A DNA stretch of 64,000 bases from Deltaproteobacteria bacterium (GTDB lineage: Bacteria; Myxococcota; XYA12-FULL-58-9; JAFGEK01): assembly GCA_016931625.1 (NCBI GenBank), contig JAFGEK010000020.1, positions 39,110-103,109 of the forward strand, given 5' to 3'. The position numbers and the translations under genes are program-made. The notes under the pieces were generated by a model. That model did no database searches and had not been told where the DNA came from. It saw nothing but the letters and a program-made list of their open reading frames with translations. Numbering within the stretch: position 1 is the first letter of the stretch; every line of letters starts with the position of its first letter. Shown here in pieces: positions 1,419-61,264 of this stretch.

Positions 1419-1456
1419 AGGTTTTAATAGGGACACCCCACGAACTGCGGAATTTT

Positions 1457-2570: not shown

Positions 2571-2587
2571 TTAGGGGGTGTCCCTAA
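2571..2587. repeat. Copy 1 of the inverted-repeat motif TTAGGGGGTGTCCCTAA (TTAGGG-N5-CCCTAA). It sits in the divergent promoter region between the GAF-GGDEF gene and the small ORF/kinase gene.
   Basis: I read the motif directly in the sequence. The arms TTAGGG and CCCTAA are reverse complements. The identical 17-mer recurs at 2658. Confidence 0.6.
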
Positions 2588-2657: not shown

Positions 2658-2674
2658 TTAGGGGGTGTCCCTAA
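2658..2674. repeat. Copy 2 of TTAGGGGGTGTCCCTAA, 87 bp downstream of copy 1
   Basis: Exact 17/17 identity with 2571-2587. Confidence 0.6.
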
Positions 2675-13737: not shown

Positions 13738-14799
13738 ATGCAGTATCTTGGCATGTCTAGCATCGTTAGGCAAAAGTATGTTACATGCTTTTTAACGATG
13801 CTAAATCAAGAAAACCTTATATTTATTATTGGTTCGCCGCGCTCAGGCTCTACTTTGTTGCAGCGTATGGTTGGTTCACATTCAAAAATTTTCACCCATC
13901 CAGAACCGCATTTAATTACACCGCTATTTTATTTGGGATATTACACCAATGTAGATAAAGCACCATATGATCATATTAATGCCGCACAAGCGTTACGTGA
14001 GTTTTGTGAAGAATTGCCTAATGGAGAAAATGATTATCTTGAGGCGCTGCGTGCCTATGCTAGTACGCTTTATGAAAAAGTACTTAATGCCAGTGGCAAA
14101 GAGTTCTTTCTTGATAAAACTCCCGCATATGCTTTGGTGTTGCCATTTTTAACGAAGTTATATCCGCAAGCAAAATATATAGTATTAACTAGACACCCTT
14201 TGGCAATTTTACATTCAGTAGCTCATTCATTTTTTGCTGGTGATTATAAAACCGCTGTTGAAACAAATCCGATTATACAACGATACATACCCGCGATTGG
14301 TGCATTTATTCATGAGCGTCCCGTACCATTTGTACACATACGTTACGAAGATTTAGTGAATGAGCCAGAAAAACAGATGCAACATATTTGCGAACACTTA
14401 AGGCTAAGCTATGAACCTGAAACCATAACTTATGGTCAGTATAAACATATTTCAAAGAGTTATGGTGATCCGATGTCAGTAGAAAAGCATCAAAGACCAG
14501 TAGGGGATTCAATAGAAAAGTGGGTGCCTGATTTGCTCGCGCGTCCTAAAGTTATGGCTATTGCCAGAAGGAGTATAGCATCACTTGATGAAGATCATTT
14601 AGCCGCATGGGGATATCCCAAAGAAGAAATTTTTGCTGCATTAAGTAGTGGTAGGGCAAGTCCTACACAAACACCGTTGAATATTTATCGCATTAAACGA
14701 CAAGTTTTATTACATTTGCGTAAAAATATTCACAAGAACCTATTCGGAAAATTAATTAAAAAGATACGCTATTATTGCGATGTTTTACTGCGTACATAG
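13738..14799 (+). CDS. Sulfotransferase-family protein
   Basis: IFIIGSPRSGSTLLQRMV matches the 5'-PSB PAPS-binding loop of sulfotransferases (PKSGTT-like). The start codon is uncertain (13738, 13753 or 13798). Confidence 0.6.
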   Translation: MQYLGMSSIVRQKYVTCFLTMLNQENLIFIIGSPRSGSTLLQRMVGSHSKIFTHPEPHLITPLFYLGYYTNVDKAPYDHINAAQALREFCEELPNGENDYLEALRAYASTLYEKVLNASGKEFFLDKTPAYALVLPFLTKLYPQAKYIVLTRHPLAILHSVAHSFFAGDYKTAVETNPIIQRYIPAIGAFIHERPVPFVHIRYEDLVNEPEKQMQHICEHLRLSYEPETITYGQYKHISKSYGDPMSVEKHQRPVGDSIEKWVPDLLARPKVMAIARRSIASLDEDHLAAWGYPKEEIFAALSSGRASPTQTPLNIYRIKRQVLLHLRKNIHKNLFGKLIKKIRYYCDVLLRT

Positions 14800-15151
14800 G
14801 TGCACCCCCTGATTTTACGAATATTATAATGCTTATGCCACACTGACAATTATTTCGCGCACATGATGTTAGTAATACGGTAGATGTTGCTACATTGCTA
14901 CAGAATAGATATTGCTACAAACAGTTATAATAAAAATATAACTACTCAGCCCTTCAACAGGTAACGGCGCCAGGAAATAACATCAAAGAAACAATCTTAA
15001 GACTGCTATTTATTAGTATCCAAAAGTCAGGATTCAGAATTAAATACAAAATCAACTAAAAATCGGTATTCTGTAACTTTCTAAGTTCTATTAAGCATGC
15101 CTTTAATCATGAAATCCTTTGTTAGGTACGTGCGCCGTCTTACCTAGGCGC

Positions 15152-26521: not shown

Positions 26522-27783
26522 ACGTAATGCAACAGCCTGAACCAACTGTTCCTGATATCGATCGTAGCATTCAAACAGGCATTTATAATAAAACTTTTTC
26601 TGCTGCAGCATGTATTGCTAGTGTGGGTAGCACAATTTTTCATCGTAGTGTGTACGGTTTAGTGTCACAACCACCACCTGTACGCCGTAGCGATTATAAT
26701 TTATTATTTGACCTTGGAGGATTAACTCAAGTTTTAGGCGCTGGATTAGCAGCACTATACCTTATTAGCAAAAACCGTTTAGATTTAGATATTCCACTTG
26801 ATCGTACCATACCTGAGTTTAAACATAGTCGTTTTAGCAAAATAACAGTTTCGATGCTGTTAGAACATTGTGCCGGATTTCCTTCGAGCAATGACCTATC
26901 AAATTATTTGCGCAAGCTCGATAATCGTCGTCCACCAGATAAACGTATTATTGGTACAAGTGCTGCTTTAGCGGAGCTTAAGCGGGTAGTCCCACAATTA
27001 AAATTATCATTTACACCTGGTAGTATGGTTACGGAGTCAGCGGTTAATAGCATGGTGCTTGGGTGGATCATTGAAGCGGTTACCGGAAAACCGCTTGATA
27101 TCTTTTTAGAACGTGAAATATTTAAACCTCTAGGGATTGCTGACCAAATATTTTTTGTGCGCCTATATGAAACTCATCATCCAATGCTTAGTGCTAAAAG
27201 GGTTTTTGCTGCGGGTGAGCAATGTCCATGGCGTAACAAATTGCTTCAAGGTGAAGTTAGTGATGCTACAGCATGGATAGCGGGTGGCGTTGCCGGTCAT
27301 GCTGGGCTTTTTGGCACAATTGATGCGGTATGGACTATTATCGATGCATTACAGCAAAGTTATCATGGTACGGGGCGCTTTTTTTTAGGTGGTGCAGTAA
27401 AACGTTTTTGGACTCGTTCAAAACGTTTAGCTTCTGCTACTCGCGCCTTAGCTTGGGATACCACAACTGTTAATAATCCCAAGGCAGGCAAACGGTTTTC
27501 TCAATCATCAGTTGGGCAAGTTGATCCATTAACTGGAGCGATTTGGATTGATCTAGCAAGTAAAATATCGGGAGTTTTCCTTGCTAATGGCAATCATCCT
27601 CGCGCAACTGACAAAATTGAAGCCATTGCTAAAATTCAATTAAGAGTATTTGAACTAATTGCCAAACACGGAGAGGCAATTTTACCACAGATCAATCAAG
27701 CAATGGGTTCAAAAGCTTTTTATGATTCATCAACTCAAGGCTCAGTGCAAACGTCTTCACCATATGGTGGCCGTCGTTATTAG
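26518..27783 (+). CDS. Beta-lactamase/transpeptidase-fold (class C beta-lactamase-related) protein with degenerate catalytic motifs, a probable pseudo-enzyme
   Basis: Fold motifs are present: FDLGGLTQVLGAGLAALYL (where FDLASLTKV is expected), LLEHCAGFP, AVNSMVLGWIIEAVTGKP, GHAGLFGT. The SxxK motif is GxxQ and the YxN motif is AxN. Translationally coupled to ldcA (ATGA overlap). Confidence 0.7.
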   Translation: MNVMQQPEPTVPDIDRSIQTGIYNKTFSAAACIASVGSTIFHRSVYGLVSQPPPVRRSDYNLLFDLGGLTQVLGAGLAALYLISKNRLDLDIPLDRTIPEFKHSRFSKITVSMLLEHCAGFPSSNDLSNYLRKLDNRRPPDKRIIGTSAALAELKRVVPQLKLSFTPGSMVTESAVNSMVLGWIIEAVTGKPLDIFLEREIFKPLGIADQIFFVRLYETHHPMLSAKRVFAAGEQCPWRNKLLQGEVSDATAWIAGGVAGHAGLFGTIDAVWTIIDALQQSYHGTGRFFLGGAVKRFWTRSKRLASATRALAWDTTTVNNPKAGKRFSQSSVGQVDPLTGAIWIDLASKISGVFLANGNHPRATDKIEAIAKIQLRVFELIAKHGEAILPQINQAMGSKAFYDSSTQGSVQTSSPYGGRRY

Positions 27784-27797
27784 GGGATGTCCCTGAA
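27780..27797. repeat. Variant copy of the TTAGGG-N5-CCCTAA motif (TTAGGGGATGTCCCTGAA), in the promoter region of mpl
   Basis: 14-15 of 17 positions match the 2571 copy. Intergenic, 40 nt upstream of the mpl start. Confidence 0.5.
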
Positions 27798-27834
27798 TTA
27801 GGTTTAAAAGGTTTTAAATTAGGAGATAGATGTT

Positions 27835-29250
27835 TTGAGTTATATTTATATGCTCGGCATTTGCGGCACTGGAGTGGGTGCCTTAGCAGGTTTACTTAAA
27901 CAATTAGGCCATGAAGTAGTTGGTAGCGATGAAAATGTTTATCCTCCCATGAGCGACAAACTAAGAGAATGGGGTATTCCCATTCTTAATGGTTATAACA
28001 TTGAGCATCTTAGCCGTCGTCCTGATTTGGTTGTTGTTGGTAATGTGATTAGGGCCAGCAATCCTGAGGCGATTTTTATACGCGAGCAAGGCATTAAACA
28101 AATGTCAATGCCTGCAGCTATTGCTGAGTTTGGTATTGGTGACCGTCATAGCATCGTCGTAGCCGGAACGCATGGTAAAACCACGGTAACGGCATTAATA
28201 GCTCATCTTTTACTAGCCGCTGGGCGTGATCCGTCTTATTTAATTGGTGGGGCATTAATTGGTTACCCAGAATCTTTTCGCATAACTAATAGTAAATTTT
28301 TTGTTATCGAAGGTGATGAATACGATACAGCATATTTTGATAAAGGACCGAAATTTGTTCATTATCGACCACGTACTGCAATAATCACCAGCCTTGAATT
28401 TGACCATGCTGATATCTTTGAAAATATTGCTGCAGTCGAAAAAGCTTTTGGCCGTCTTGTGCAAACCGTACCTGAAGATGGCCATTTAATAGTTTGGCAT
28501 GGCGCTACGCGTGCTCGCAAACAACTTGCATATGCTGGCAATAGGCATATTACGGTGTATGCTTTGCACCAACAAGATGGCGTAAATTTATATTTAAAAG
28601 AATATATTGATAGTCCAAATGGTCTTATTTTTACGCCAGTCTTTAATGGCGTTTCGCTTGGTTCTATGAATGCGCCATTGTGGGGTGAGGTTAGTGTGCA
28701 AAACGTTCTTGCGGCTATTGCCGCTACAATTGATGCTGGGCTTAATCGTGATGAGTTGGCGCATGGTTTTGCAACTTTTCGTGGGGTAAAGCGTCGCCTT
28801 GAGTTATTGGGTGAACCAAATGGTATAGCGGTAGTTGACGACTTTGGCCATCATCCAACTGCGGTTCGTATGACATTAAACGCTGCTAAGGTACGTTGGC
28901 CTAATCGTCGTTTATGGGCAGTATTTGAGCCGCGTTCAGCTACTGCTCGCAGAAATGTATTACAACACGAATATGTTGATGCTTTTCAAGATGCCGATAT
29001 GGTGGTGATTGCTAGTCATGAGCGTATGAATGAAATTCCTTACGCACAACGTTTTAATCCTCAGTTATTAGTACAGCAAATACAGAAAAAAGGGATAAAT
29101 GCGCGAGCTATCGCGCTAGTAGATGAAATTGCTAACACGATTTACAAAGAAGCAACTAGAGGCGATGTAATTATTTTGTTTTCAAATGGTTCTTTTGGGG
29201 GATTGCATATTAAAGTACTCAGTGATTTAGCGGCACGCCGGAATAAATAA
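27835..29250 (+). CDS. mpl: UDP-N-acetylmuramate:L-alanyl-gamma-D-glutamyl-meso-DAP ligase (murein peptide ligase)
   Basis: The N-terminus (M)SYIYMLGICGTGVGALAGLLKQLGHEVVGSDENVYPPMS matches Mpl (MRIHILGICGTFMGGLA...GSDANVYPPMS). Mur-ligase body. TTG start with AGGAG 9 nt upstream. Confidence 0.85.
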   Translation: MSYIYMLGICGTGVGALAGLLKQLGHEVVGSDENVYPPMSDKLREWGIPILNGYNIEHLSRRPDLVVVGNVIRASNPEAIFIREQGIKQMSMPAAIAEFGIGDRHSIVVAGTHGKTTVTALIAHLLLAAGRDPSYLIGGALIGYPESFRITNSKFFVIEGDEYDTAYFDKGPKFVHYRPRTAIITSLEFDHADIFENIAAVEKAFGRLVQTVPEDGHLIVWHGATRARKQLAYAGNRHITVYALHQQDGVNLYLKEYIDSPNGLIFTPVFNGVSLGSMNAPLWGEVSVQNVLAAIAATIDAGLNRDELAHGFATFRGVKRRLELLGEPNGIAVVDDFGHHPTAVRMTLNAAKVRWPNRRLWAVFEPRSATARRNVLQHEYVDAFQDADMVVIASHERMNEIPYAQRFNPQLLVQQIQKKGINARAIALVDEIANTIYKEATRGDVIILFSNGSFGGLHIKVLSDLAARRNK

Positions 29251-30084
29251 ATGACTACTAAAGACCAAATTTATAAAGATGCTGTTGTTATTGCAAAAGG
29301 CGCAGGCAATATTTTACGTGATGCATTTGGTAATACTCGCACCATTAAATATAAAGGTAGTATTGATTTAATAACCGATGCTGATCGTGCTTCTGAAAAA
29401 TATATATTAACCGAAATACATAAGCGCTATAAAGAGCATGCAATTTTTGCTGAAGAGAGTGGTGATAATCAAAAAGATGGCCCTTGGCGCTGGGTAATTG
29501 ACCCACTTGATGGCACAACTAATTTTGCCCATGGGGTACCATACTATGCTGTACTTATAACCGTACAAGAACGTATAGCCCCCAATAAATATGCAAGTAG
29601 CATTGCGATTACTTATGACCCATCACGCGATGAGTTGTTTGTTGCTAATAAGAACACAGGAGCAACACTAAATGGTAAACCTATATCGGTATCAGATGTA
29701 GGTAGACTCATTGAGTCATTACCTGCTACTGGTTTTGCTTATGACCGTATTGATAACCCTGATGATAATCATGCTGAATTTTGTCGTTTAAATTTACTAA
29801 CTCAAGGTGTGCGTCGTTGTGGCTCTGCAGGATTAGATCTTGCTTATGTCGCATGTGGTCGTTTCGATGCTTTTTGGGAATATCGACTCAATCTTTGGGA
29901 TATTGCAGGTGGCATTCTTTTAGTGTCTGAAGCTGGTGGTAAAATATCAACATTGCAAGGTAACCCACTTCAATCAGAGTCACTTGATATTGTAGTAAGC
30001 AATGGATATATTCATGAAGAGTTATTACAGGCCTTACGAAAATCTCGGCAGCTGCCGATTGGTTCTCGTGAAAATTTAACATAG
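29251..30084 (+). CDS. Inositol-monophosphatase family protein (SuhB-like)
   Basis: WVIDPLDGTTNFAHGVPYYAV and GSAGLDLAYVACGRFDAFWE are IMPase signatures. Confidence 0.85.
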   Translation: MTTKDQIYKDAVVIAKGAGNILRDAFGNTRTIKYKGSIDLITDADRASEKYILTEIHKRYKEHAIFAEESGDNQKDGPWRWVIDPLDGTTNFAHGVPYYAVLITVQERIAPNKYASSIAITYDPSRDELFVANKNTGATLNGKPISVSDVGRLIESLPATGFAYDRIDNPDDNHAEFCRLNLLTQGVRRCGSAGLDLAYVACGRFDAFWEYRLNLWDIAGGILLVSEAGGKISTLQGNPLQSESLDIVVSNGYIHEELLQALRKSRQLPIGSRENLT

Positions 30085-30128
30085 CAAAAAGATAGTGATT
30101 TAAAGAAAAATTATTAAGGAAAGTAGTT

Positions 30129-31343
30129 ATGCAATTACGCGATTTTAAAGCTCGTAAAGTTACTGATGATGTTATGTGGGTTGGGGCAATTGATTGGGAC
30201 CGTCGGATATTTGACGAACTAATACCACTTCCTGATGGCACCAGTTATAATTCTTATTTAATTCGTGGTTCTAAGCACACAGCGCTTATCGATACAGTTG
30301 ATCCAGCAAAAACCGAAGTTATGCTTAGTCGCATAAAGAGTACTGGTATTGAGAAAATTGACTATATTATTGCTAATCATGCCGAGCAGGACCATTCTGG
30401 CTCAATACCTATAGTGATTGAGCAACATAAAGAAGCCAAGGTGGTAGTTACTGAGAAGTGTAAAGGGATGCTTTGTGATCTATTGCATATAGATGCTGAG
30501 CGTATGTTAGTTGTTAAAGATGGTGATACTATCGATCTTGGTGGCCTCACTCTTCAATTCATTCATTTCCCATGGGTGCATTGGCCCGAGACCATGTTAA
30601 CGTGGTTGCCTGAGCGCGCAGTACTTTTTTCTTGCGATTTGTTTGGATCACATCTCGCCACAGGTGATTTATTTGCCGACAGCCAAGCTGATGTTTTATT
30701 GGGTGCCAAGCGTTATTATGCTGAAATAATGATGCCTTTTCGCAGCAATATTAATAAGCAACTTGCAAAAATAAATGATTTAGAAATTAGTTACATTGCA
30801 CCAAGCCATGGACCAATTTTTAATATACCCAATTTTATTACTGATGCTTATCTTGATTGGGTAAGTTCGCCGCCACGTAATTTAGTTGTAGTGCCGTACA
30901 TTTCAATGCATGACAGTACTCGTCAGATGGTTGAGTATTTTGTTGATGGCATGGCTCGACGCGGTATTTGTACTGAGCAAATTAATTTAGGCGACGGTGA
31001 TATTGGTAAGCTAGCAATGCTTTTAGTAGATGCAGCTACAGTCGTAGTTGGTTCGCCTATGGTTCTTATGGGGGCGCATCCAAAAGTAGTATATGCGGCA
31101 TATCTATTGAATATATTGAGACCTAAATTGCTGCATTTATCTATTCTTGGGTCATTTGGTTGGGGTGGTAAACTCGTCGAGCAACTTCTAGGAGTTATGC
31201 CAAATATCAAAGCCGAAGTGTTACCACCGGTATTATGCAAAGGCGCACCCAAAGCCGATGATTTCGCAGCGATAGATGCATTAGTGGCAGCTATTAGCGA
31301 ACGTCATGCTGCATTATCAAATAAGCTAACACGAAAATCTTAA
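30129..31343 (+). CDS. Flavodiiron protein (FprA family: metallo-beta-lactamase-like domain plus flavodoxin-like domain)
   Basis: N-terminal MBL-like domain with HAEQDHSG (the H-x-E-x-D-H di-iron motif), then a flavodoxin-like C-terminus. 404 aa. Confidence 0.8.
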   Translation: MQLRDFKARKVTDDVMWVGAIDWDRRIFDELIPLPDGTSYNSYLIRGSKHTALIDTVDPAKTEVMLSRIKSTGIEKIDYIIANHAEQDHSGSIPIVIEQHKEAKVVVTEKCKGMLCDLLHIDAERMLVVKDGDTIDLGGLTLQFIHFPWVHWPETMLTWLPERAVLFSCDLFGSHLATGDLFADSQADVLLGAKRYYAEIMMPFRSNINKQLAKINDLEISYIAPSHGPIFNIPNFITDAYLDWVSSPPRNLVVVPYISMHDSTRQMVEYFVDGMARRGICTEQINLGDGDIGKLAMLLVDAATVVVGSPMVLMGAHPKVVYAAYLLNILRPKLLHLSILGSFGWGGKLVEQLLGVMPNIKAEVLPPVLCKGAPKADDFAAIDALVAAISERHAALSNKLTRKS

Positions 31344-31423
31344 AAATTTACAAGAAATTGTTACTGATCGAATTTACTTTAGTGACTACTACAGCGGTTT
31401 CTTTACTTTTTTCATGATACTTA

Positions 31424-31440
31424 TTAAGGGGTGTCCCTAA
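31424..31440. repeat. Copy of the TTAGGG-N5-CCCTAA motif (TTAAGGGGTGTCCCTAA), in the promoter region of the dapA-like gene
   Basis: 16 of 17 positions match the 2571 copy. Intergenic. Confidence 0.5.
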
Positions 31441-31549
31441 TTAAATGCTGTTTTTTTAGTGCTACATGTTTGTATTTCTTGTTATATGTGTTGTTGTGTT
31501 AAGGTTAGACAACGCTGTAAATTTTGCAAGAAAGTAAAAGAGAAACGTT

Positions 31550-32467
31550 ATGACAATGCGTGAATTAAAAGGGATGATTGTTCCAAATATTACGCCATTT
31601 AAAAATGATGCTGCGCGTAGTCTCGATCTCGAAAGAATAGATAAATTAGTAGACTTCATCATTGATAAACAAAACGCTGATGCAATAATCGCTGTTGGAA
31701 CCACCGGCGAATCAACGTCATTGTCACATGATGAAAAAGAAGTGGTAATTTTACGCACATTGAAAGCTGTTAAGGAGCGAGTACCGGTACTGGCTGCAAC
31801 TGGTAGCGCTAATACACAAGAAGCTATTGCAATGACGCAGTTTTGCGAGCGTTCAGGTATTGCTGGTGTGCTTTTAGTATCGCCATATTATATCCGCCCT
31901 AATCAAGATGGTTTGTATCAACATTTTTCGGCAGTGGCACAAAATACTAAGTTACCGATAATACTGTATAACCATCCTGGTAGAACCGGCGTTTCAATTC
32001 AAGTTGATACCCTTATTCGTCTAGCGCAACGTTATGAAAATATAATCGGTATTAAAGATTGTCCAAATAATTTAGCTCTTTCTACTGATGTAGCCCGACG
32101 TTGTCGCTCTGAATTAGGCCGTTCATTTTCATTTTTAACCGGTGAAGATGAGTTTATTTATATGAATATTTGTCTTGGGGGCGATGGGGCGATTGCGGCT
32201 TCTGGACACTTATTAGGCAATGAAATTAAGCAAATGATAGACCTTTTTAACAAAGGTCAAGTTGAACAAGCGCGTAAATTGCAATTTATGATTACTGATT
32301 TAATACGTATGCTTTTTGTAATGCCTAGTCCAGCCCCACTTAAAGCTGCACTCGATATTTTGACAGAAGGCGAGGAGCTTGGTGGTCCAGTACGTTTGCC
32401 ATTAGTAGATGCACCTGAAGATCTGAAACAAAAACTTAAAATTGAATTAGCTCGCGTTAAAGGCTAA
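31550..32467 (+). CDS. Dihydrodipicolinate synthase family class I aldolase (DapA-like)
   Basis: AIIAVGTTGESTSLSHDEK, VLLVSPYY, GIKDC (the Schiff-base Lys context). About 305 aa. Confidence 0.75.
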   Translation: MTMRELKGMIVPNITPFKNDAARSLDLERIDKLVDFIIDKQNADAIIAVGTTGESTSLSHDEKEVVILRTLKAVKERVPVLAATGSANTQEAIAMTQFCERSGIAGVLLVSPYYIRPNQDGLYQHFSAVAQNTKLPIILYNHPGRTGVSIQVDTLIRLAQRYENIIGIKDCPNNLALSTDVARRCRSELGRSFSFLTGEDEFIYMNICLGGDGAIAASGHLLGNEIKQMIDLFNKGQVEQARKLQFMITDLIRMLFVMPSPAPLKAALDILTEGEELGGPVRLPLVDAPEDLKQKLKIELARVKG

Positions 32468-54187: not shown

Positions 54188-55987
54188 ATGGAGCGAGTTG
54201 AGGGTGAAGCTAAAACCAGACGATACCCACGTGTACCATTTCACACTCATGTCGATGTAAGCGGTAATTCATTAAACATTGCTGGGTTTACTAGCAATAT
54301 TAGCCGTGATGGTTTGGCTTTTAGTCTACCGCTTAAAGATTTGGGCGAAAAAGCTGGTAGATTGCCGGTAGGTACTGAATTAGCTCTGCGTTTGCATCTT
54401 CCAACTCTTCAGGCTCCATTGATCATTAAATGTCAAGTAGCTTGGACTGGCCAGCCTGCCAGAGATTCTGCAGGACGACTTGCGGTTCGTATGGGAGTAC
54501 ATTTTTGTTCCGAACAACCCAGTGTCGACCAAGCTGTTGTCGAGCTTATGGCCAGTTTTCGTCATCGTATAGCTATTATTGATTTTCCTGTAATTGAAAA
54601 AATTAAAGAGACATTAGATGATTTATATCCAATCGAAGAGATAAAGGACCTTGAGACATTAAATACTTCGATGTCTCGCAGTGAAGTCGGATTAATTGTT
54701 ATTGGCAACGGTAAAGGAGATGATGTTTTAATTAAAACGGTTATTGAAATTTTACGGTACACGCAAGTAGAAATTCAACCACCATTATTAGTATGTGTGC
54801 CCGAAGATTCGAAAGCTTTTTCTCAGCTTCCCCCTGATAAATTTAATGTTTTATTTGCCCGCTGGCCAATTAGTGCCTTAGAACTGCGTGCTTTGGCAGT
54901 CAGAAGTGTTGAAAGCCATGCTGTAGCTTTAGAAAATGCCAGATTAAGGTTTGAACTAGAAGGTATGGTTGAACGGCTACAACGTGAAAACCAATTTTTC
55001 AGAGGTAAATTTGTCACCGGCTCTCGTTTTGAAGGAATAATTGGTGATAGTGCACCAATGCGACGCTTATATGAAACTGTTGAACGGGTAGCAGCTTCGG
55101 ACGCGAATGCTATTATTTTAGGTGAAACAGGGACAGGCAAAGAGCTAATCGCTCGTGCTTTATTTTTGCATAGTCGTCGTGCAGATAAACCATTTCTTGC
55201 GCAAAACTGTGCTGCACTTTCAGAATCTTTGCTGGATAGCGAATTATTTGGTCATTGTCGTGGCGCTTTTACCGGCGCGGTTTTGGATCACGCTGGTTTA
55301 TTTGAAGCTGCTGATGGCGGTACCATTTTTTTAGATGAAGTTGCTGAGATGAGTCAGACTATGCAAGCAAAGCTTTTGCGCGTATTACAAAATAAGGAGC
55401 TTCGTCGCATAGGTGAAACTAAAATTCGTCAAATTGATGTACGGGTAATATGTGCAACTCATCGTAATCTTGAGACGATGATTGCCGATGGCAGATTTCG
55501 GGCTGATTTATATTATCGCATTGCGGTTATTTCATTACACATACCACCATTACGTGAACGTCGTGATGATATTCTTGCCTTAGCTACACACTTTTTGGCG
55601 CATTTTGCGGCAGAAAATGGTACCGAGCCCGTAATGGTATCGGCTGAAGCAATGAGATTGTTAGAAGCATATTCATGGAAAGGTAATGTGCGTGAATTGC
55701 AGCACTCTATGGAAAAGCTTGCCATGTTGACTCCGAAAGGAGCACGAATTACTGCTGAAAGTGTTGCTGATATTTTAGGGCGCGAAAAATTAAGCTCGCA
55801 ACAGATAGAAGATCTACAAGAAACCATGCCTTTAGACGCAGCACTTGAAGATTGTGAAAAAAGACTTATCGAAAGAGCCCTGCGTATCAACCAAGGGGTT
55901 ATTGCTAAAGCAGCACGTACTCTTGGAGTAAATCGCAGTACCTTATCAAAGCGTTGCCGACGTTTAGGAATTCAAGCAACTGAATGA
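54188..55987 (+). CDS. Sigma-54-dependent transcriptional activator with an N-terminal PilZ domain (PilZ / linker / AAA+ sigma54-interaction domain / Fis-type HTH)
   Basis: PilZ motifs RRYPR (RxxxR) and NISRDGLAF ([DN]xSxxG). AAA+ motifs GETGTGKELIARALF (Walker A), GAFTGA (the sigma54-contact loop), FLDEV (Walker B). C-terminal HTH VIAKAARTLGVNRSTLSKRCRRLGI. Confidence 0.85.
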   Translation: MERVEGEAKTRRYPRVPFHTHVDVSGNSLNIAGFTSNISRDGLAFSLPLKDLGEKAGRLPVGTELALRLHLPTLQAPLIIKCQVAWTGQPARDSAGRLAVRMGVHFCSEQPSVDQAVVELMASFRHRIAIIDFPVIEKIKETLDDLYPIEEIKDLETLNTSMSRSEVGLIVIGNGKGDDVLIKTVIEILRYTQVEIQPPLLVCVPEDSKAFSQLPPDKFNVLFARWPISALELRALAVRSVESHAVALENARLRFELEGMVERLQRENQFFRGKFVTGSRFEGIIGDSAPMRRLYETVERVAASDANAIILGETGTGKELIARALFLHSRRADKPFLAQNCAALSESLLDSELFGHCRGAFTGAVLDHAGLFEAADGGTIFLDEVAEMSQTMQAKLLRVLQNKELRRIGETKIRQIDVRVICATHRNLETMIADGRFRADLYYRIAVISLHIPPLRERRDDILALATHFLAHFAAENGTEPVMVSAEAMRLLEAYSWKGNVRELQHSMEKLAMLTPKGARITAESVADILGREKLSSQQIEDLQETMPLDAALEDCEKRLIERALRINQGVIAKAARTLGVNRSTLSKRCRRLGIQATE

Positions 55988-55999
55988 ACGTAAAGTAAA

Positions 56000-56027
56000 G
56001 TAGGGGCTAATAATTATTAGCCCCTAC
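56000..56027. terminator. Perfect 28-nt palindrome GTAGGGGCTAATAATTATTAGCCCCTAC, a bidirectional intrinsic terminator between convergent genes
   Basis: A 12-bp GC-containing stem around an AATT centre, with A/T-rich flanks on both sides. It sits between the activator stop (55987) and the SCPU gene stop (56027). Confidence 0.6.
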
Positions 56028-56563
56028 TACCATTGTACAGTTGCTACAATAGTATCGAGATAGTTACCAGCCGGTATGTCTTGGCCTGGTGGTATTCGCC
56101 CATAAATAGTTACAGTTACATTTGAGTTTTTTGGCGGTATAGTTTGGTAATAAGTAGTACCTTCTGTACCATCTCCCCATATATTACTATGTGCTGCGTC
56201 TAAATAGAGATTGTATTGTTGCACATAAGCACCACTTTGCATTTGGCGCGGATTATAGCTGGTAGCACTACCACGGCTAAGGGTTATTAATACGGGATCT
56301 CCATTTACTTGACGACAACGATAAGTGATGCTGCCGGTTGAATCAGTTGGAGTGGCGTTAAAAACATCGTAGGTGCCAAAATTAATGCCTACAGTACCTC
56401 GAATATTACATTTTATCGCCAAGGCAGTATTAGATGCTGCAAACAAAAGAAATACACCAAAAACAAATGCAATAAGTGGTGTTCTTCTTTTAAACCAACC
56501 ATTTGTTTTTTGCCTTGCCTGTTTAAAAATGAGGCGCGGTTGAAAACGGTGGCATATATGCAT
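56027..56563 (-). CDS. Spore-coat-protein-U (SCPU) domain pilus subunit (Csu-type, distal or tip-associated)
   Basis: A signal-peptide-like segment, then the SCPU pattern ...YNLYLDAAHSNIWGDG...GRIPPGQDIPAGNYLDTIVATVQW. Confidence 0.7.
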   Translation of the reverse strand: MHICHRFQPRLIFKQARQKTNGWFKRRTPLIAFVFGVFLLFAASNTALAIKCNIRGTVGINFGTYDVFNATPTDSTGSITYRCRQVNGDPVLITLSRGSATSYNPRQMQSGAYVQQYNLYLDAAHSNIWGDGTEGTTYYQTIPPKNSNVTVTIYGRIPPGQDIPAGNYLDTIVATVQW

Positions 56564-56743
56564 ACATATACTCCAAAAACGATGTCTCGCAATGTTCGTT
56601 TTTACTTAGTTAGTAAAATCAAACAACCGCAATCACATAATTATATTGTATCGTGTTATTTAACATAAGGCATGTTATATACGCAAAAATAGATAACTAA
56701 ATGTTTTAAATAGGAAAGCTAAAATTATATTATTTGTACAGTG

Positions 56744-57283
56744 TTACCATTGTAATGTTGCAACGATGGTATCGTGGTAATTACCTGCTGGTATATCTTG
56801 CCCTGGGGGTATACGTCCATAAATAGTAACAGTTTCGGTTCTGAAATTAGGCGGGACAGTTTGAAAATACGAACTACCTCCTGAACCATCACCCCATATG
56901 ATGGTGCGGGATGCATCGAGATAAAGATTATATTGTAAGGTGAATCCACCATTTTGCATTCGTCTAGGAGTATAACTTGCGGCACCACCACGACTGAGGG
57001 ATAATCTTACTGAAGCGCCTCCGACAAAAAAGCAGAAATAGCTGAAACTGCCAGTCGAATCAGTGGGAGTACTATTAAATACATCATAAGCCCCAAAATT
57101 TATTCCCGTCGATTGGGTAATAAAACAATAAATCGCATGTGCATTGGTAGGGGCAAATAGTAAAAAAAGTAAGATAAACACTGATAGAATATTAAATCTA
57201 CTTAATGTCTTTTTATCATTATAGCTGATAGGTCGGGGTTTAACGACCTTATCAAATTTTTTTATTCCGAAATGGCAATACAT
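56744..57283 (-). CDS. SCPU-domain pilus subunit (paralog of 56027)
   Basis: ...YNLYLDASRTIIWGDG...GRIPPGQDIPAGNYHDTIVATLQW, the same C-terminal pattern. Overlaps the usher gene by 22 nt. Confidence 0.7.
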   Translation of the reverse strand: MYCHFGIKKFDKVVKPRPISYNDKKTLSRFNILSVFILLFLLFAPTNAHAIYCFITQSTGINFGAYDVFNSTPTDSTGSFSYFCFFVGGASVRLSLSRGGAASYTPRRMQNGGFTLQYNLYLDASRTIIWGDGSGGSSYFQTVPPNFRTETVTIYGRIPPGQDIPAGNYHDTIVATLQW

Positions 57284-59646
57284 TTAACTACTCCCAAGTC
57301 GATAAATTGTTCGTCTTTTTGTGGTACAACTAAAGCAAAAATGCAGTTTGTACCGCTATAATATATTGTAGCCTGATAAGTTCCTGAGCGCAGGTTTTCA
57401 AAATAAAATTCAGCATTCGCGCCAAGAGGTGATGTCATAATGCCATTGTTGGTCGCGATGGTTAAATCTCCATAATTTGGTTGAAGTATTTCGTCATCCT
57501 TGATGAGAATGATTTTGCCGATAATAGCTTGCATTTTACGCATCTTTGGCTCTACTAATGCTCCACCTCTATATGGTGGAGCAACTATTACTTCCGATTG
57601 CTCAATTTCATAATTAAAAGGAACATCAGCATCACTTATACTTATGCGATTGCCATAATATGGTAATAAATTGGGCACTAAAAATTCTCCACTAGCATCA
57701 GTTTGACCAATAATTTGATTGTCTAGTAATACGGAGACATCGGGTGTTTTTGGTAAACGTACTAATGCAAAACTATTACTTATTGGTCTGCTGGCTTTAA
57801 GCGACCCGTCAAGCCAAACTAAAGAACCAGTTGCACTTACACTGCCGGTGTTCTGTGCACCATACTCATTATGGATACCATCATAGCTAGCTTCATAGCG
57901 TCCATAATCCCATTGATACTGCATTAACGCCCGTGCGGCACCACCACCAGCGTTAAATGTTTGTAATTCAGAGCGGTAACCGATGCCTTCATTAGGAGGT
58001 AAGGGTTTTTGCATTTGAAAAGTTGTAGTGGCATTTGCACCAGTTTGATGTGATACCGCGGCGCTAGTCGATTGCGGCATTGTGTAAGTCAAGCCTATAA
58101 AAGCAGAGGTAGTAGTTGAATTATCTTCAATTGTTAAATCTGTTGTTAAAAAGAAACTTAACGCACCAAGCTGCCAATTAGTATTAACCGAAAATTGATG
58201 TGTGGCGGTATGGTTCTGATGCACACCTAAATCATAATGTAGTGACAAACCTACACCAAAAGGTAATGGTAATGAAATAAAAGCTGCAGCATCGATAGGT
58301 AATTTTTCAATTTCAGTCGATGAATTAAGGCTGGTGTAAGCATTGTTTTGCACTTGTAGCGAGCCGCCAAAACTAAGATATCGACTAGAGTTAGTATAGA
58401 TTAACGCTCCGGCAGAACCAGTGCGGTTTTCACTAAAACTCATGGCGCCTGCAAGCTCTAATTCACCAATAGGTAAACCCAAGCTAATGGTAGGACCAAA
58501 ATTAGTTTGCCATGGTGTGGCATCAGTGCGACCACCAACCGTCAACCAATCATTAACACCTGTGCGGTAATATCCAAGAACTACAGCTTTACCATAGTCA
58601 AAACTTTTTTGGGTGTTTTCGCGTAGGACCCCTAGATTGACCGAAAATTCCGTAATATCTGGCGATAATAAAGATGCTGCAAAATAATAAGGCGAAATTA
58701 TTTCACGACTTTCGCCAAAAGCATCACGCATAATTACTTCTACCGAACCTCGACCTACTGGTGTTGGAATATTTTCAATATTAAAAGGTCCTGGCGGCAA
58801 TTGTTCACGCCGCAGAAATATCCCATTACGATAAATTTCAATAGTTGCTGGGGTTAATACTGAACCTGAAATACCATGTCCTGGTTGCCGTAAAAAATAG
58901 GGGTCAAGAGCAAAATTACGTGCAACGCTAATACCCGCAAATTGTGCGCTACTACCTAAAAGTCCGGTACTAGCTTGCGCGTCACCAAGAGTCCAGCGCG
59001 TTAGATTTTCTGTGTCATCATAAACAAAATAACTTGGTCCGCGAACAAATTCACCTAAAGTAGTACGTCTGACGCTGTTATAAAGTAGTCCCCAAGGTGA
59101 ATTAAATGCCAACTCAGAAAACCCACTAAAATCGGTACTATTGCTCCAATCAATAGCATAATTTAATAATAGACTGTTATCACGTGGATATTGGATATCC
59201 TTGGGTCGATTAGACCTCATGCTAATAGTCGTCGGTGCAAAAAAATCAGGGGCAGCAGTTAAGCTTAAACTAAGTGTTTGCTCGTCAAAGGTATAAGTTA
59301 TTTTTGGCGCTAACGATTTTAACAACACCATGTCTTCGCCATAAAAAATATTATAAGTACCTTTGGTTTCTTTAATGCCTGCAGCAAGTAAGTCATTAAC
59401 TCGCAAATAAATATCCTTATTAAGTAAATAGATTAACACTTCACCCTTGGGTACTGAATTTACCGACATTGGTACTACTATGGGTAAGGGTAACATAGTG
59501 GGATCTTCAGGTAGATCAGAGATGGCTAATGCTGGCAGACTAATAAAGAAGATAAATATAAATACAGTTCGTTGATGCCGCGCCAAGAGTCGGAATATAA
59601 AATAAAAATAACGTGCTAAAGCACCTATTTTAAGGCCCACATACAT
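57262..59646 (-). CDS. Fimbrial outer-membrane usher protein
   Basis: About 790 aa, signal peptide, large beta-barrel. Positioned between the chaperone and subunit genes as in csuD/fimD-type systems. Confidence 0.75.
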   Translation of the reverse strand: MYVGLKIGALARYFYFIFRLLARHQRTVFIFIFFISLPALAISDLPEDPTMLPLPIVVPMSVNSVPKGEVLIYLLNKDIYLRVNDLLAAGIKETKGTYNIFYGEDMVLLKSLAPKITYTFDEQTLSLSLTAAPDFFAPTTISMRSNRPKDIQYPRDNSLLLNYAIDWSNSTDFSGFSELAFNSPWGLLYNSVRRTTLGEFVRGPSYFVYDDTENLTRWTLGDAQASTGLLGSSAQFAGISVARNFALDPYFLRQPGHGISGSVLTPATIEIYRNGIFLRREQLPPGPFNIENIPTPVGRGSVEVIMRDAFGESREIISPYYFAASLLSPDITEFSVNLGVLRENTQKSFDYGKAVVLGYYRTGVNDWLTVGGRTDATPWQTNFGPTISLGLPIGELELAGAMSFSENRTGSAGALIYTNSSRYLSFGGSLQVQNNAYTSLNSSTEIEKLPIDAAAFISLPLPFGVGLSLHYDLGVHQNHTATHQFSVNTNWQLGALSFFLTTDLTIEDNSTTTSAFIGLTYTMPQSTSAAVSHQTGANATTTFQMQKPLPPNEGIGYRSELQTFNAGGGAARALMQYQWDYGRYEASYDGIHNEYGAQNTGSVSATGSLVWLDGSLKASRPISNSFALVRLPKTPDVSVLLDNQIIGQTDASGEFLVPNLLPYYGNRISISDADVPFNYEIEQSEVIVAPPYRGGALVEPKMRKMQAIIGKIILIKDDEILQPNYGDLTIATNNGIMTSPLGANAEFYFENLRSGTYQATIYYSGTNCIFALVVPQKDEQFIDLGVVKCIAISE

Positions 59647-60400
59647 TTACTGGGAGATCCATGCTCTTGGTCACTGTAGTAAAATCGGTTTCAATGTTTA
59701 AATTTAATGCTTTGCTATTTTTACATTCATCTGCAGTTAATTCCACATTGTAGATTCTTTGGCCGCCTGAAAGGACATACCAACCATCAAAGCTTTGCTC
59801 CTTTATTATGGAGCCTTTGGTATTAGTGATCGAGTAATTAATTTTACGTAAAGAAAAATGCACATTACCTGTATTTAATATGGCAAAACTCACCTGGTGT
59901 TTAGCTAGCACTATTTTTTCGATACTGACACTATGTTTAGCGGTGCCCTGATGAATAAAAATTGGGATACCCAGCTCGGTTAATATTCTTAACTGATTAC
60001 CTTCAGCAGTATTTTTGTCTTTATTATCTGGCGGTAGTTCAGTGACAAATATGCGATATGATTTTTCTATATCACTAGCTTTCACTCTTGTACCCACACG
60101 GATATTTCTTTTCTCTTTAGGTTGAAGCATTAATAAGGTTGGAAAGAAAACAATATCCTGTGTAGGTTTTAATACCATTTCACCATTGTTTTTCTGATCC
60201 CAAGAAAACCCACGTACCTGCAAACGCAGGGTTTCAGCACTATCATTAGTTATCATTAATAAAGTGCTTGAGGTATCTGACGATAGTGTGACTTGCACCG
60301 GTTTGACACTAAATGTGCTTGCAAGTGCAGGGTTAGTTATAAGGAGTAAGTAAGCGGTCAGGATGGGGTAGAGGCAGCGCATGCATAGATTGTAAAGCAA
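59630..60400 (-). CDS. Periplasmic pilus chaperone (PapD/CsuC-like)
   Basis: About 250 aa with a signal peptide. The N-terminal domain FSVKPVQVTLSSD...LLMITNDSAETLRLQVRGFSW is a CsuC/PapD-like beta-sandwich pattern. Overlaps the usher start. Confidence 0.7.
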   Translation of the reverse strand: MLYNLCMRCLYPILTAYLLLITNPALASTFSVKPVQVTLSSDTSSTLLMITNDSAETLRLQVRGFSWDQKNNGEMVLKPTQDIVFFPTLLMLQPKEKRNIRVGTRVKASDIEKSYRIFVTELPPDNKDKNTAEGNQLRILTELGIPIFIHQGTAKHSVSIEKIVLAKHQVSFAILNTGNVHFSLRKINYSITNTKGSIIKEQSFDGWYVLSGGQRIYNVELTADECKNSKALNLNIETDFTTVTKSMDLPVNVCGP

Positions 60401-60427
60401 GGTGCCTTGAGGGTCTAATTATTGTTC

Positions 60428-60931
60428 TTAGAAGTTTACAGTAGCTACTACGGTATCATTGTATGAGCCGGCTGGTACATCTTGACCGGCGCTAACGCGA
60501 CCGTAAACCGTAAAGGGGCGAGGGGCGCTACTGGGTGCTGGAGCTGGAGTTAGCAAATCAGGAGCCGCATCACCCCATGAAGTCGTTCTGCCTGCATCTT
60601 GGTAAAGGTCATATTCTAAATAACCAGTGCCACCGTCATTCATCCGTCGTTGGGTACCAGAAGCATTGACGCCAAGACCAAGACCTATTGTTGTCGTTGC
60701 TCCTTGGGTACAGGTCACAGTCACAGTGCCAGTTGCATCTAGGTCGACGGCCGCGTTAGCGACGATAGGATCGTAGGTGCCAAATGCCAGCGCTGCGGTG
60801 GTGATACTGCAATTATTAACTACTACAGCGCTAACATCGAGGTTGGCAGTAGCAGTAGCAGCCAAAGCTGACGAAGAAATCGCAGTTAAAAAAGCGATGG
60901 TTACTAAACTAATTTTGAATGATTTTGCCAT
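60428..60931 (-). CDS. SCPU-domain major pilin (CsuA/B-like)
   Basis: ATG at 60929-60931 with GGAG upstream, and signal peptide MAKSFKISLVTIAFLTAISSSALA. ...YDLYQDAGRTTSWGDA...GRVSAGQDVPAGSYNDTVVATVNF. The ORF-track start at 61027 would swallow the predicted sigma-54 promoter. Confidence 0.75.
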   Translation of the reverse strand: MAKSFKISLVTIAFLTAISSSALAATATANLDVSAVVVNNCSITTAALAFGTYDPIVANAAVDLDATGTVTVTCTQGATTTIGLGLGVNASGTQRRMNDGGTGYLEYDLYQDAGRTTSWGDAAPDLLTPAPAPSSAPRPFTVYGRVSAGQDVPAGSYNDTVVATVNF

Positions 60932-60989
60932 TTCCGTGCTCCAGTCTAACGCATCCGCAATGCGTGTGTTTTCTTGGATAAATAGTAGA

Positions 60990-61004
60990 GCATTTTTGGT
61001 GCCA
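60990..61004 (-). promoter_or_regulatory. Candidate sigma-54 (-24/-12) promoter. The minus strand reads TGGCACcaaaaATGCT, driving the pilin-chaperone-usher operon.
   Basis: GG-N10-GC spacing is exact. The -24 TGGCAC is perfect and the -12 ATGC has one mismatch to TTGC. It lies about 58 nt upstream of the pilin ATG. Confidence 0.55.
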
Positions 61005-61264
61005 ACTATTAAAATGGTGTTTGGCACTTTTTACATACGAAAAAGTATAATAAAAACAAGGTATTATAATATTGCAGGTGGTAGCTATGGTTACATTAAC
61101 TATGCATATTTTACATAGTTGCGTGTCGATATTCACGCATTTTTAAGGTATTTAAGCAAAATATTCATGCTGATATTATACACCGACATACATGACATGC
61201 TTAATAATTATTCTAAATGTGTTGAATGCACGGAGATGTTTAATAATTTTAGAGAATGGATGGA

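Follow-up and report, generated by a model that had tools for sequence, protein, structure and literature searches.

Solo copies of an intergenic palindrome in an uncultured Myxococcota-type genome match the ends of IS5-family insertion sequences and MITEs

A palindromic motif, TTAGGG-N5-CCCTAA, recurs between the genes of an uncultured Myxococcota-type bacterium, and its operator-like appearance raises the question of whether it marks the sites of a transcriptional regulator or has a different origin. In the original prediction, four copies were counted in a 64,000-nucleotide stretch of the genome (hereafter, the window), and a small regulon, a global regulator or a small mobile REP-like palindrome was proposed to account for them. 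The sequences and coordinates given for the copies at mpl and the dapA-like gene agree with the window. The count of four was too low, as it missed a diverged copy at 1427-1443 and a possible one at 14796-14812; a further perfect copy lies just outside the left edge. The organism's Logan contigs match the window at 100% identity and thus show no strain variation; they lengthened the census by 17 kb (~81 kb in total). The copies are as follows.

1427..1443, minus strand: diverged solo copy TCGTGGGGTGTCCCTAT, 13/17 positions matching, in a 38-nt spacer between convergent genes
2571..2587, plus strand: perfect solo copy TTAGGGGGTGTCCCTAA, in a 332-nt divergent spacer between a GGDEF gene (minus) and ORF 2791/kinase (plus)
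2658..2674, plus strand: perfect solo copy TTAGGGGGTGTCCCTAA, in the same spacer and orientation as the 2571 copy, 87 nt downstream
14796..14812, minus strand: possible degenerate copy TCAGGGGGTGCACCTAT, 13/17, tentative as its matrix score is barely above background
27780..27796, plus strand: solo copy TTAGGGGATGTCCCTGA, 15/17, in a 51-nt spacer between a PBP4B-like gene and mpl
31424..31440, plus strand: solo copy TTAAGGGGTGTCCCTAA, 16/17, in a 206-nt spacer between a flavodiiron gene and the dapA-like gene
L047 8670..8686, antisense to both neighbouring genes: perfect copy in an 80-nt spacer, 0.8 kb beyond the window's left edge

The motif is clearly over-represented. At two or fewer mismatches, the window holds six matches to the 17-mer against 1.31 expected, a number reached in none of 100 shuffles, and the core GGGNTGTCCC occurs 10 times against 3.5 expected. 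Half of the six clear copies are perfect (3/6), and both orientations are present. All five clear copies in the window lie outside ORFs, which leave only 9.7% of it uncovered (P = 8.5e-6), so that the earlier statement that no copy falls within coding sequence holds, overlaps with stop codons excepted; these are the sole overlaps with ORFs. The further claim that the copies are intergenic and precede plus-strand genes survives in its first half, except that the 27780 copy, 38 nt before the TTG start of mpl (27835), is not purely intergenic: it carries the TAG stop of the PBP4B-like gene (27781-27783). The second half fails for the 1427 copy, which is flanked by the stops of a DUF167 gene (1416-1418) and a GGDEF gene (1457-1459) and is upstream of no gene. 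The 31424 copy lies 80 nt beyond the flavodiiron gene stop and 109 nt before the ATG of the dapA-like gene (31550). The sequences flanking the window copies are unrelated to one another, and the repeated unit is therefore only ~17 nt long. Outside ORFs it occurs about once every 1.2 kb, a density that implies hundreds of copies per genome.

The identity of the 17-mer emerged from scans of public collections. We searched metagenomes and genomes for the exact pattern and checked the returned loci for inverted motif pairs, of which ~13 were spaced at 149-178 bp and ~8 at 654-887 bp; the partner of each lay on the inner side, with few matches among wrong-side controls. MITE-like elements of 150-170 bp carry TA followed by GGGGGTGTCCCT(A/G)AAT at each of their two ends, and the CCCTGAAT variant seen in the 27780 copy also occurs at MITE ends. 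The former sequence also bounds elements of 776-880 bp with a two-ORF IS5-family transposase of the IS427-group type, those in Myxococcota, the window's own phylum, included:

L099, 97..972: element with orfA and orfB
L103, 2848..3727: element with orfA and orfB
L062 and L072: elements with orfA and orfB
L014 (Polyangiales) and L015 (Corallococcus): elements with orfA and orfB

The products of orfA (DUF4096) and orfB (DDE_Tnp_1) scored 126 and 139 bits, respectively, against NCBIfam NF033580, 'IS5 family transposase', both above the cut-off of 110, and the 17-mer was present at both ends of the elements in L099, L103 and L062. IS427-group elements have two overlapping ORFs, a 2-bp duplication and a comparable size (PMC3281130), and the 776-880 bp elements match the group in all three respects. 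Among 11 partner ends lying outside the query selection, TAGGGGGTGTCCCT was invariant and the sequence near-invariant up to position 19, with position 1 and all positions beyond 19 variable. The element flanks read xTA/GGGGG...CCCCC/TAy, which fits a YTAR target with TA duplication. Five solo copies among the six clear ones read T-TA-core-T(A/G)-A, where the TA may be either the duplication or part of the repeat, the two being inseparable here.

Judged by sequence identity, the 17-mer comprises the conserved outer end of a terminal inverted repeat (TIR), that of an IS5-family, IS427-group-type IS, plus the TA duplication, T-TA-GGGGGTGTCCC-TA-A, and the identical TIR also ends the 150-170 bp elements, which are non-autonomous MITE derivatives. 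A solo copy was also found in L110, an unrelated contig from a MITE-holding sample. The motif scan of the genome collection, the representatives of which exclude the source MAG, returned scattered single matches and no many-copy genome. A query of the plasmid collection with the 880-bp IS gave distant partial IS5-family matches only and no named IS, and a literature search for the motif sequence string retrieved unrelated primers only.

What sets the window copies apart from these elements is that they are 17 nt long, precisely bounded, and consist of one repeat with no internal sequence. We found no inverted partner for any window copy in the window or its extensions, no IS5 transposase gene in the window plus the 17 kb of extensions, and no transposase or RAYT domain in any window ORF. 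None of the window copies belongs to a unit bounded by two inverted ends, as in an intact IS or MITE. Without an inverted partner and with unrelated flanks, the copies are remnants or solo repeats rather than elements, and they are probably immobile.

Three copies provide a TAG stop codon, including that of the PBP4B-like gene and, in the case of the tentative 14796 copy, that of a sulfotransferase gene (plus-strand TAG at 14797-14799). Restoring the sequence that preceded insertion gives an in-frame TAA in every case. Among the stop codons here, TAG is the least used (8/49). As the element begins with G, insertion into the TA of a TAA stop would regenerate a stop as TAG and would thus be harmless to the protein. 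Insertions into the TA of TAA stops appear to be tolerated for this reason.

We consider it reasonably probable that the copies are solo TIR remnants of former IS or MITE insertions, most likely left behind by slipped-strand deletion. An IS or MITE would have inserted at TA in TTAA-like intergenic sites, including the TA of TAA stops, and the body of the element would later have been deleted by host-mediated slipped-strand events. As the tip of the TIR forms a palindrome of its own (TTAGGG..CCCTAA), CCCTAA would be found both at positions 12-17 of the left TIR and at the right terminus plus the duplication, and TTAGGG would be repeated symmetrically on the other side of the inserted element. 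Deletion between these 6-bp direct repeats is predicted to leave exactly TTAGGGGGTGTCCCTAA, so the palindromic tip would predetermine a precise 17-nt scar. This mechanism is the probable one for the solo copies, and the scars themselves are probably neutral rather than regulatory. It resembles the 'nearly precise excision' of Tn10 and the solo inverted repeats of other IS and transposons, in which a small, precise piece is left by deletion between short direct repeats inside inverted ends, and the product predicted here equals the observed 17-mer. It differs in that the remnant is 17 nt instead of 50 bp, that many loci in one genome are affected, and that the mechanism is one we infer here. 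The established work behind the deletion model is reportedly that of Ross, Swan and Kleckner in 1979 and Foster et al. in 1981.

Several observations weigh against such scars. Over ~81 kb, the six or seven copies are all solo and neither an intact MITE nor an intact IS is present, whereas nearly all motif copies on the MITE-bearing metagenome contigs come in pairs; deletion would therefore require a lineage-specific and complete purge. We observed no site polymorphic for the full element versus the solo copy. Slippage would have a shorter direct repeat to act on in the 27780 variant (CCCTGA), and the high density together with the 3/6 perfect copies would fit active amplification of, or selection on, the 17-mer as well. 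Two other routes to the 17-mer were rejected. A transposase-excision footprint (TA, a few terminal bases per end and TA) does not fit as the right end does not finish in TGTCCC, and a 13-nt two-ended mini-element does not fit as its far end agrees with the TIR at only 6/11 core positions.

It is worth considering that the 17-mer is a unit in its own right, an alternative that we regard as unlikely. It could be active, i.e., an ultra-short hairpin repeat that an IS5-type transposase, or some other enzyme, continues to mobilise in trans in the way that RAYT mobilises REPs. Alternatively, it could be exapted, i.e., a TIR-derived site kept as a hairpin at mRNA 3' ends or between cistrons, or as a site for the DNA-binding domain of a domesticated transposase. 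The density, the exclusively solo state and the perfect copies speak for such a unit; a sense-strand RNA hairpin would agree with the conserved asymmetric loop and with the 27780 copy's change, which is U-G-compatible, and 4/6 clear copies are in sense orientation relative to the gene downstream, several directly after stop codons. The predicted hairpins of six pairs are nevertheless weak (-5 to -8 kcal/mol) and their z-scores unremarkable (-0.2 to -2.8), no consistent T-tract follows them, and no Rfam family matches. The copies also occur in both orientations relative to genes, the 6/11 match at the far end would make a poor two-ended transposase substrate, and the 81 kb contain no transposase or RAYT gene. 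Intrinsic terminators were likewise rejected, since the 6-pair stem is weak and no T-run adjoins it; the 27780 copy alone passes a lax scan.

It is attractive to speculate further that a 17-nt piece of an IS5-type TIR has been multiplied or kept in this lineage as an intergenic hairpin throughout the genome, in what would be hundreds of copies, and that it is trans-mobilised or exapted (bound by a domesticated transposase domain or acting at mRNA 3' ends) and parked preferentially on TAA stops. We would give this only a small chance. If it is the case, the fragment would be the shortest known trans-mobilised repeat or an exapted TIR-derived site, and its preferential placement on TAA stops would convert them to TAG.

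The regulon, in which a dimeric transcription factor would bind the 6-5-6 palindrome to control the GGDEF/kinase genes, mpl and the dapA-like gene, is very improbable. The outer arms are palindromic, the copies are strictly intergenic, four of them precede plus-strand genes, and two share a single divergent promoter region, all of which counts in favour of operators. Nevertheless, the genes around the 1427 copy converge, so that no promoter is expected there, the L047 copy runs antisense to each of its neighbours, and the 27780 copy sits inside the conserved ldcA-PBP4B-mpl cluster. In very short spacers of 38, 51 and 80 nt, two or three of the copies share bases with stop codons. The distances from motif to start are inconsistent (38, 109, 116 and 203 nt), as are those to -10-like boxes, and a promoter scan revealed no consistent -10/-35 relation at the copies. 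Unlike a set of operators, the copies are near-identical even in the non-palindromic centre GGTGT, the ends of IS and MITEs in unrelated phyla have the same sequence, and no regulator or HTH gene was found near any copy. In the nearest relatives (L042 and L043), the syntenic PBP4B-mpl spacers also lack the motif; at 65% mpl identity and 62-68% GC, these genomes are too distant to inform. No close relative of the window was found in the collections, nor any among the motif-bearing contigs when all fetched loci were compared with the window by tblastx. Given the convergent and antisense copies, the stop overlaps, the erratic start distances and the lack of an adjacent regulator, neither the small regulon nor the global regulator of the original prediction is supported. 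We see the main value of the analysis in this correction: an operator-like intergenic palindrome is a transposon end, and no regulon should thus be inferred from it.

The proposal of a small mobile REP-like palindrome comes close, in that the motif is the TIR tip of IS5-family DDE IS and MITEs; what fails is the link to REP/RAYT, and the window copies are solo and probably immobile. REP/REPIN elements mobilised by RAYT (a HUH Y1 transposase) do share with the window copies high apparent copy number and the form of short, hairpin-capable extragenic palindromes, often at gene 3' ends just past stop codons, and the inverted doublets of 150-170 bp in metagenomes are superficially REPIN-like, but such an identity is extremely unlikely: the window unit is much shorter and occurs as singlets, the same ends bound 776-880 bp elements with a DDE IS5-family transposase instead of a Y1 enzyme, no window ORF matches the Y1_Tnp domain, the xTAG has a variable first base (T/C/G) with no conserved 5' GTAG, and the flanks carry a TA duplication, to our knowledge not a feature of REP elements.

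The neisserial dRS3 and Correia repeats, too, are short, abundant and intergenic, and have inverted arms of 6 bp. Correia MITEs, 100-150 bp long and with both TIRs, insert at TA and may overlap gene ends, and the recombinase linked to dRS3 is a different one. The 17-mer is similar to them as a short intergenic repeat with 6-bp inverted arms and has no sequence relation to either. In the present low-GC genome only solo copies are seen, at high density; were the whole genome in this state, it would lend itself as a useful natural system to studies of how IS and MITEs are purged or of how their ends may be exapted. As for structured RNAs, the only Rfam match in the window was one tRNA gene.

The palindrome TTAGGG-N5-CCCTAA was found in six clear copies and a tentative one within ~81 kb, in both orientations. 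This census covers the window and Logan contigs from SRR13394437 that are 100% identical to it and extend 9.5 kb further left and 7.7 kb further right. The genes around the copies, identified by NCBIfam and Pfam scans, are given in the following list.

1427-1443, minus strand: copy TCGTGGGGTGTCCCTAT, in the 38-nt spacer of the convergent DUF167 and GGDEF genes (core search and position-weight scan).
2571 and 2658 (start positions): two perfect copies, TTAGGGGGTGTCCCTAA, in the spacer from which the GGDEF gene and a small ORF diverge, the small ORF being followed by a Ser/Thr kinase gene.
14796-14812, minus strand: tentative degenerate copy TCAGGGGGTGCACCTAT, a weaker candidate from the position-weight scan.
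27780-27796: copy TTAGGGGATGTCCCTGA, between the PBP4B-like beta-lactamase-fold gene and mpl.
31424-31440: copy TTAAGGGGTGTCCCTAA, between the flavodiiron gene and the dapA-like gene.
8670-8686 of L047 (the contig overlapping the left side of the window), ~0.8 kb before the start of the window, minus strand: perfect copy, flanked by an M23 peptidase gene and maf and antisense to both.

The sequences at 27780 and 31424 are as the original prediction had them, but its count of four copies was too low, the minus-strand copy at 1427-1443 having been overlooked. With up to two mismatches, the pattern matched six times in the window against 1.31 expected, a number reached in none of 100 shuffles, and the core GGGNTGTCCC was found 10 times against 3.5 expected. 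When five copies were aligned as 97-nt stretches, conservation was confined to the motif, suggesting that the repeat unit is ~17 nt. Apart from overlaps with stop codons, all copies lie in non-ORF DNA (P = 8.5e-6 for 5/5), which makes up 9.7% of the window when ORFs of at least 100 aa are counted. We also noticed a short direct repeat, TCAGAGT...GATAATAAT, with -10-like hexamers at 2588-2657, separating the two perfect copies.

The identity of the repeat emerged from searches outside this genome. When 185,579 species-representative genomes were scanned with TTANGGGGTGTCCCTAA, 40 scattered single matches came up, and 109 stretches were recovered from a scan of JGI metagenomes for the motif. Many matches were paired with an inverted copy on the inner side (~13 pairs spaced 149-178 bp apart and ~8 pairs spaced 654-887 bp apart), and wrong-side control positions were seldom matched. 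Pairs of the shorter class form long elements, imperfectly palindromic and resembling miniature derivatives (MITEs) of insertion sequences. Units of 776-880 bp, present at four loci (L099, L103, L062 and L072) and as fragments in a Polyangiales MAG and Corallococcus, carry DUF4096 and DDE_Tnp_1 as two overlapping ORFs, each of which exceeds the cut-off of NCBIfam NF033580 ‘IS5 family transposase’. Their size, two-ORF layout and 2-bp duplication match those tabulated for the IS427 group of the IS5 family (PMC3281130). In 11 partner ends not chosen by the query, TAGGGGGTGTCCCT was invariant and the sequence near-invariant up to position 19, with position 1 and all positions beyond 19 differing between subfamilies. 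The elements are flanked as xTA-element-TAy, indicating insertion at TA in YTAR-like targets. The 17-mer in the window thus corresponds to the conserved tip of the terminal inverted repeat (TIR) of this IS/MITE family plus the TA duplication. A match of 16-17 specified bases to an IS end that recurs and is present in the same phylum would be very unlikely to arise by chance. We consider it likely that the 17-mer is a repeat derived from an IS5/IS427-type TIR, and not a set of operators.

Several MITE-like subfamilies of 150-170 bp, near-palindromic throughout, share the TIR TAGGGGGTGTCCCT(A/G)AAT with TA at the flanks; they occur on metagenome contigs (L055, L069, L076, L081, L096, L106, L114, L116, L122 and L123) and in Myxococcales and Polyangia MAGs (L012 and L039), and no description of them was found in the literature searched. 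Close variants of the core, TTATGGGGTGTCCCTAA and TTAAGGGGTGTCCCTAA, were also seen in other repeat families, which have both flanks conserved and no partner within 3 kb and lie on low-GC Bacteroidetes-type contigs (L006, L021, L065, L074, L082, L090 and L101) and Clostridium-type contigs (L036, L071, L078 and L085).

The copies in the window are solo, with precise boundaries on either side; neither an inverted partner nor internal MITE sequence nor, by tblastn, an IS5 transposase was found for them. A solo copy is also present in L110, an unrelated contig of 55% GC from a sample that likewise contains these MITEs, showing that solo copies exist outside this genome. Three copies share one geometry with respect to stop codons, in which a codon is followed by TA and the first G of the element, forming TAG. 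This TAG terminates (i) the PBP4B-like gene upstream of the 27780 copy, (ii) on the plus strand, the peptidase gene at the L047 copy, and (iii) on the plus strand, the sulfotransferase gene (13738-14799) at the tentative 14796 copy. In all three, an in-frame TAA reappears at the same codon once the 11-nt core is taken out together with one TA. Among 49 stops, TAA is the most frequent (30) and TAG the least frequent (8). Such a geometry is expected if an element beginning with G entered T-TA-A stop contexts at their TA.

The TIR tip (TTAGGG GGTGT CCCTAA) is a palindrome in its own right, so that an element inserted into TTAA would contain CCCTAA twice, at left-end positions 12-17 and at the right terminus with the duplication; in the mirror case, TTAGGG would stand at the left terminus and again within the right end. 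Slipped-strand deletion across either pair would leave exactly the 17-mer, in one or the other orientation, and would be stimulated by the large inverted repeat that an IS or MITE forms. The proposed origin parallels ‘nearly precise excision’ of Tn10, which is reportedly host-mediated (Ross et al. 1979; Foster et al. 1981), and the window copies behave like solo inverted repeats or remnants of such excision. Direct reading of the sequences ruled out both a transposase footprint, since the right end does not finish in TGTCCC, and a two-ended 13-nt mini-element, because the far end agrees at only 6/11 core positions. The copies are descendants of an IS/MITE lineage of the IS5 family (IS427 group) and, being one-ended, are not elements themselves. 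The full reading, in which these TIR-derived repeats are deletion scars and neutral, seems to us somewhat better supported than not.

The alternative that survives best is that the 17-mer is actively spreading or is itself under selection, which would also fit the solo-only state, the high density (about one copy for every 1.2 kb of non-ORF DNA) and the fact that half of the copies are perfect. Metagenome contigs bearing MITEs show pairs rather than solo copies, whereas the window has only the latter. Long palindromes are unstable and bacteria are biased toward deletion, making a complete purge through deletion plausible; a 17-nt TIR fragment that has been amplified or exapted is a residual possibility. 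The regulon of operators originally proposed fares worse. One copy lies in a convergent spacer and another is antisense to both neighbours, an operator would have no evident reason to show the stop-codon geometry, and the NCBIfam and Pfam scans detected no small HTH regulator, transposase or RAYT beside any copy or elsewhere in the window. Promoter and terminator scans gave no consistent signal. The copies resemble REPs in location only, with no RAYT found in the window; by RNA folding their hairpins are weak (-5 to -8 kcal/mol), and an Rfam search of the window returned one tRNA and nothing else.

The 27780 copy occupies a 51-nt spacer within a peptidoglycan-recycling cluster (ldcA, PBP4B-like, mpl) whose synteny is kept in relatives. 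The closest non-identical mpl homologues, labelled Myxococcota or Deltaproteobacteria, are distant (65-66% identity), and their PBP4B-mpl spacers lack the motif; GC content is 40% in the window versus 62-68% at their loci. The source lineage seems to be deep-branching and shifted in composition, and the collections searched contain no close relative. In the syntenic loci L042, L043 and L044 of the nearest relatives, the cluster comprises ldcA, PBP4B-like, mpl, inositol-monophosphatase-like, acyltransferase, epimerase and nagZ genes, and the flavodiiron and dapA-like genes (30129-32467) are missing. This pair looks like a lineage-specific insertion, with a motif copy between its two genes. Elsewhere in the window, a gene for a sigma-54-dependent activator whose N-terminal domain is PilZ (c-di-GMP-binding) (54188-55987) lies near a chaperone-usher cluster including three SCPU-domain genes (56027-61027). 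As for mpl, translation most likely begins at the TTG at 27835 (MSYIYMLGICG, as in the N-termini of homologues), versus the ATG at 27850 in the Logan record, and the NCBI label of the identical protein, ‘UDP-N-acetylmuramate dehydrogenase’, is at odds with its matches to the Mur-ligase/mpl family.
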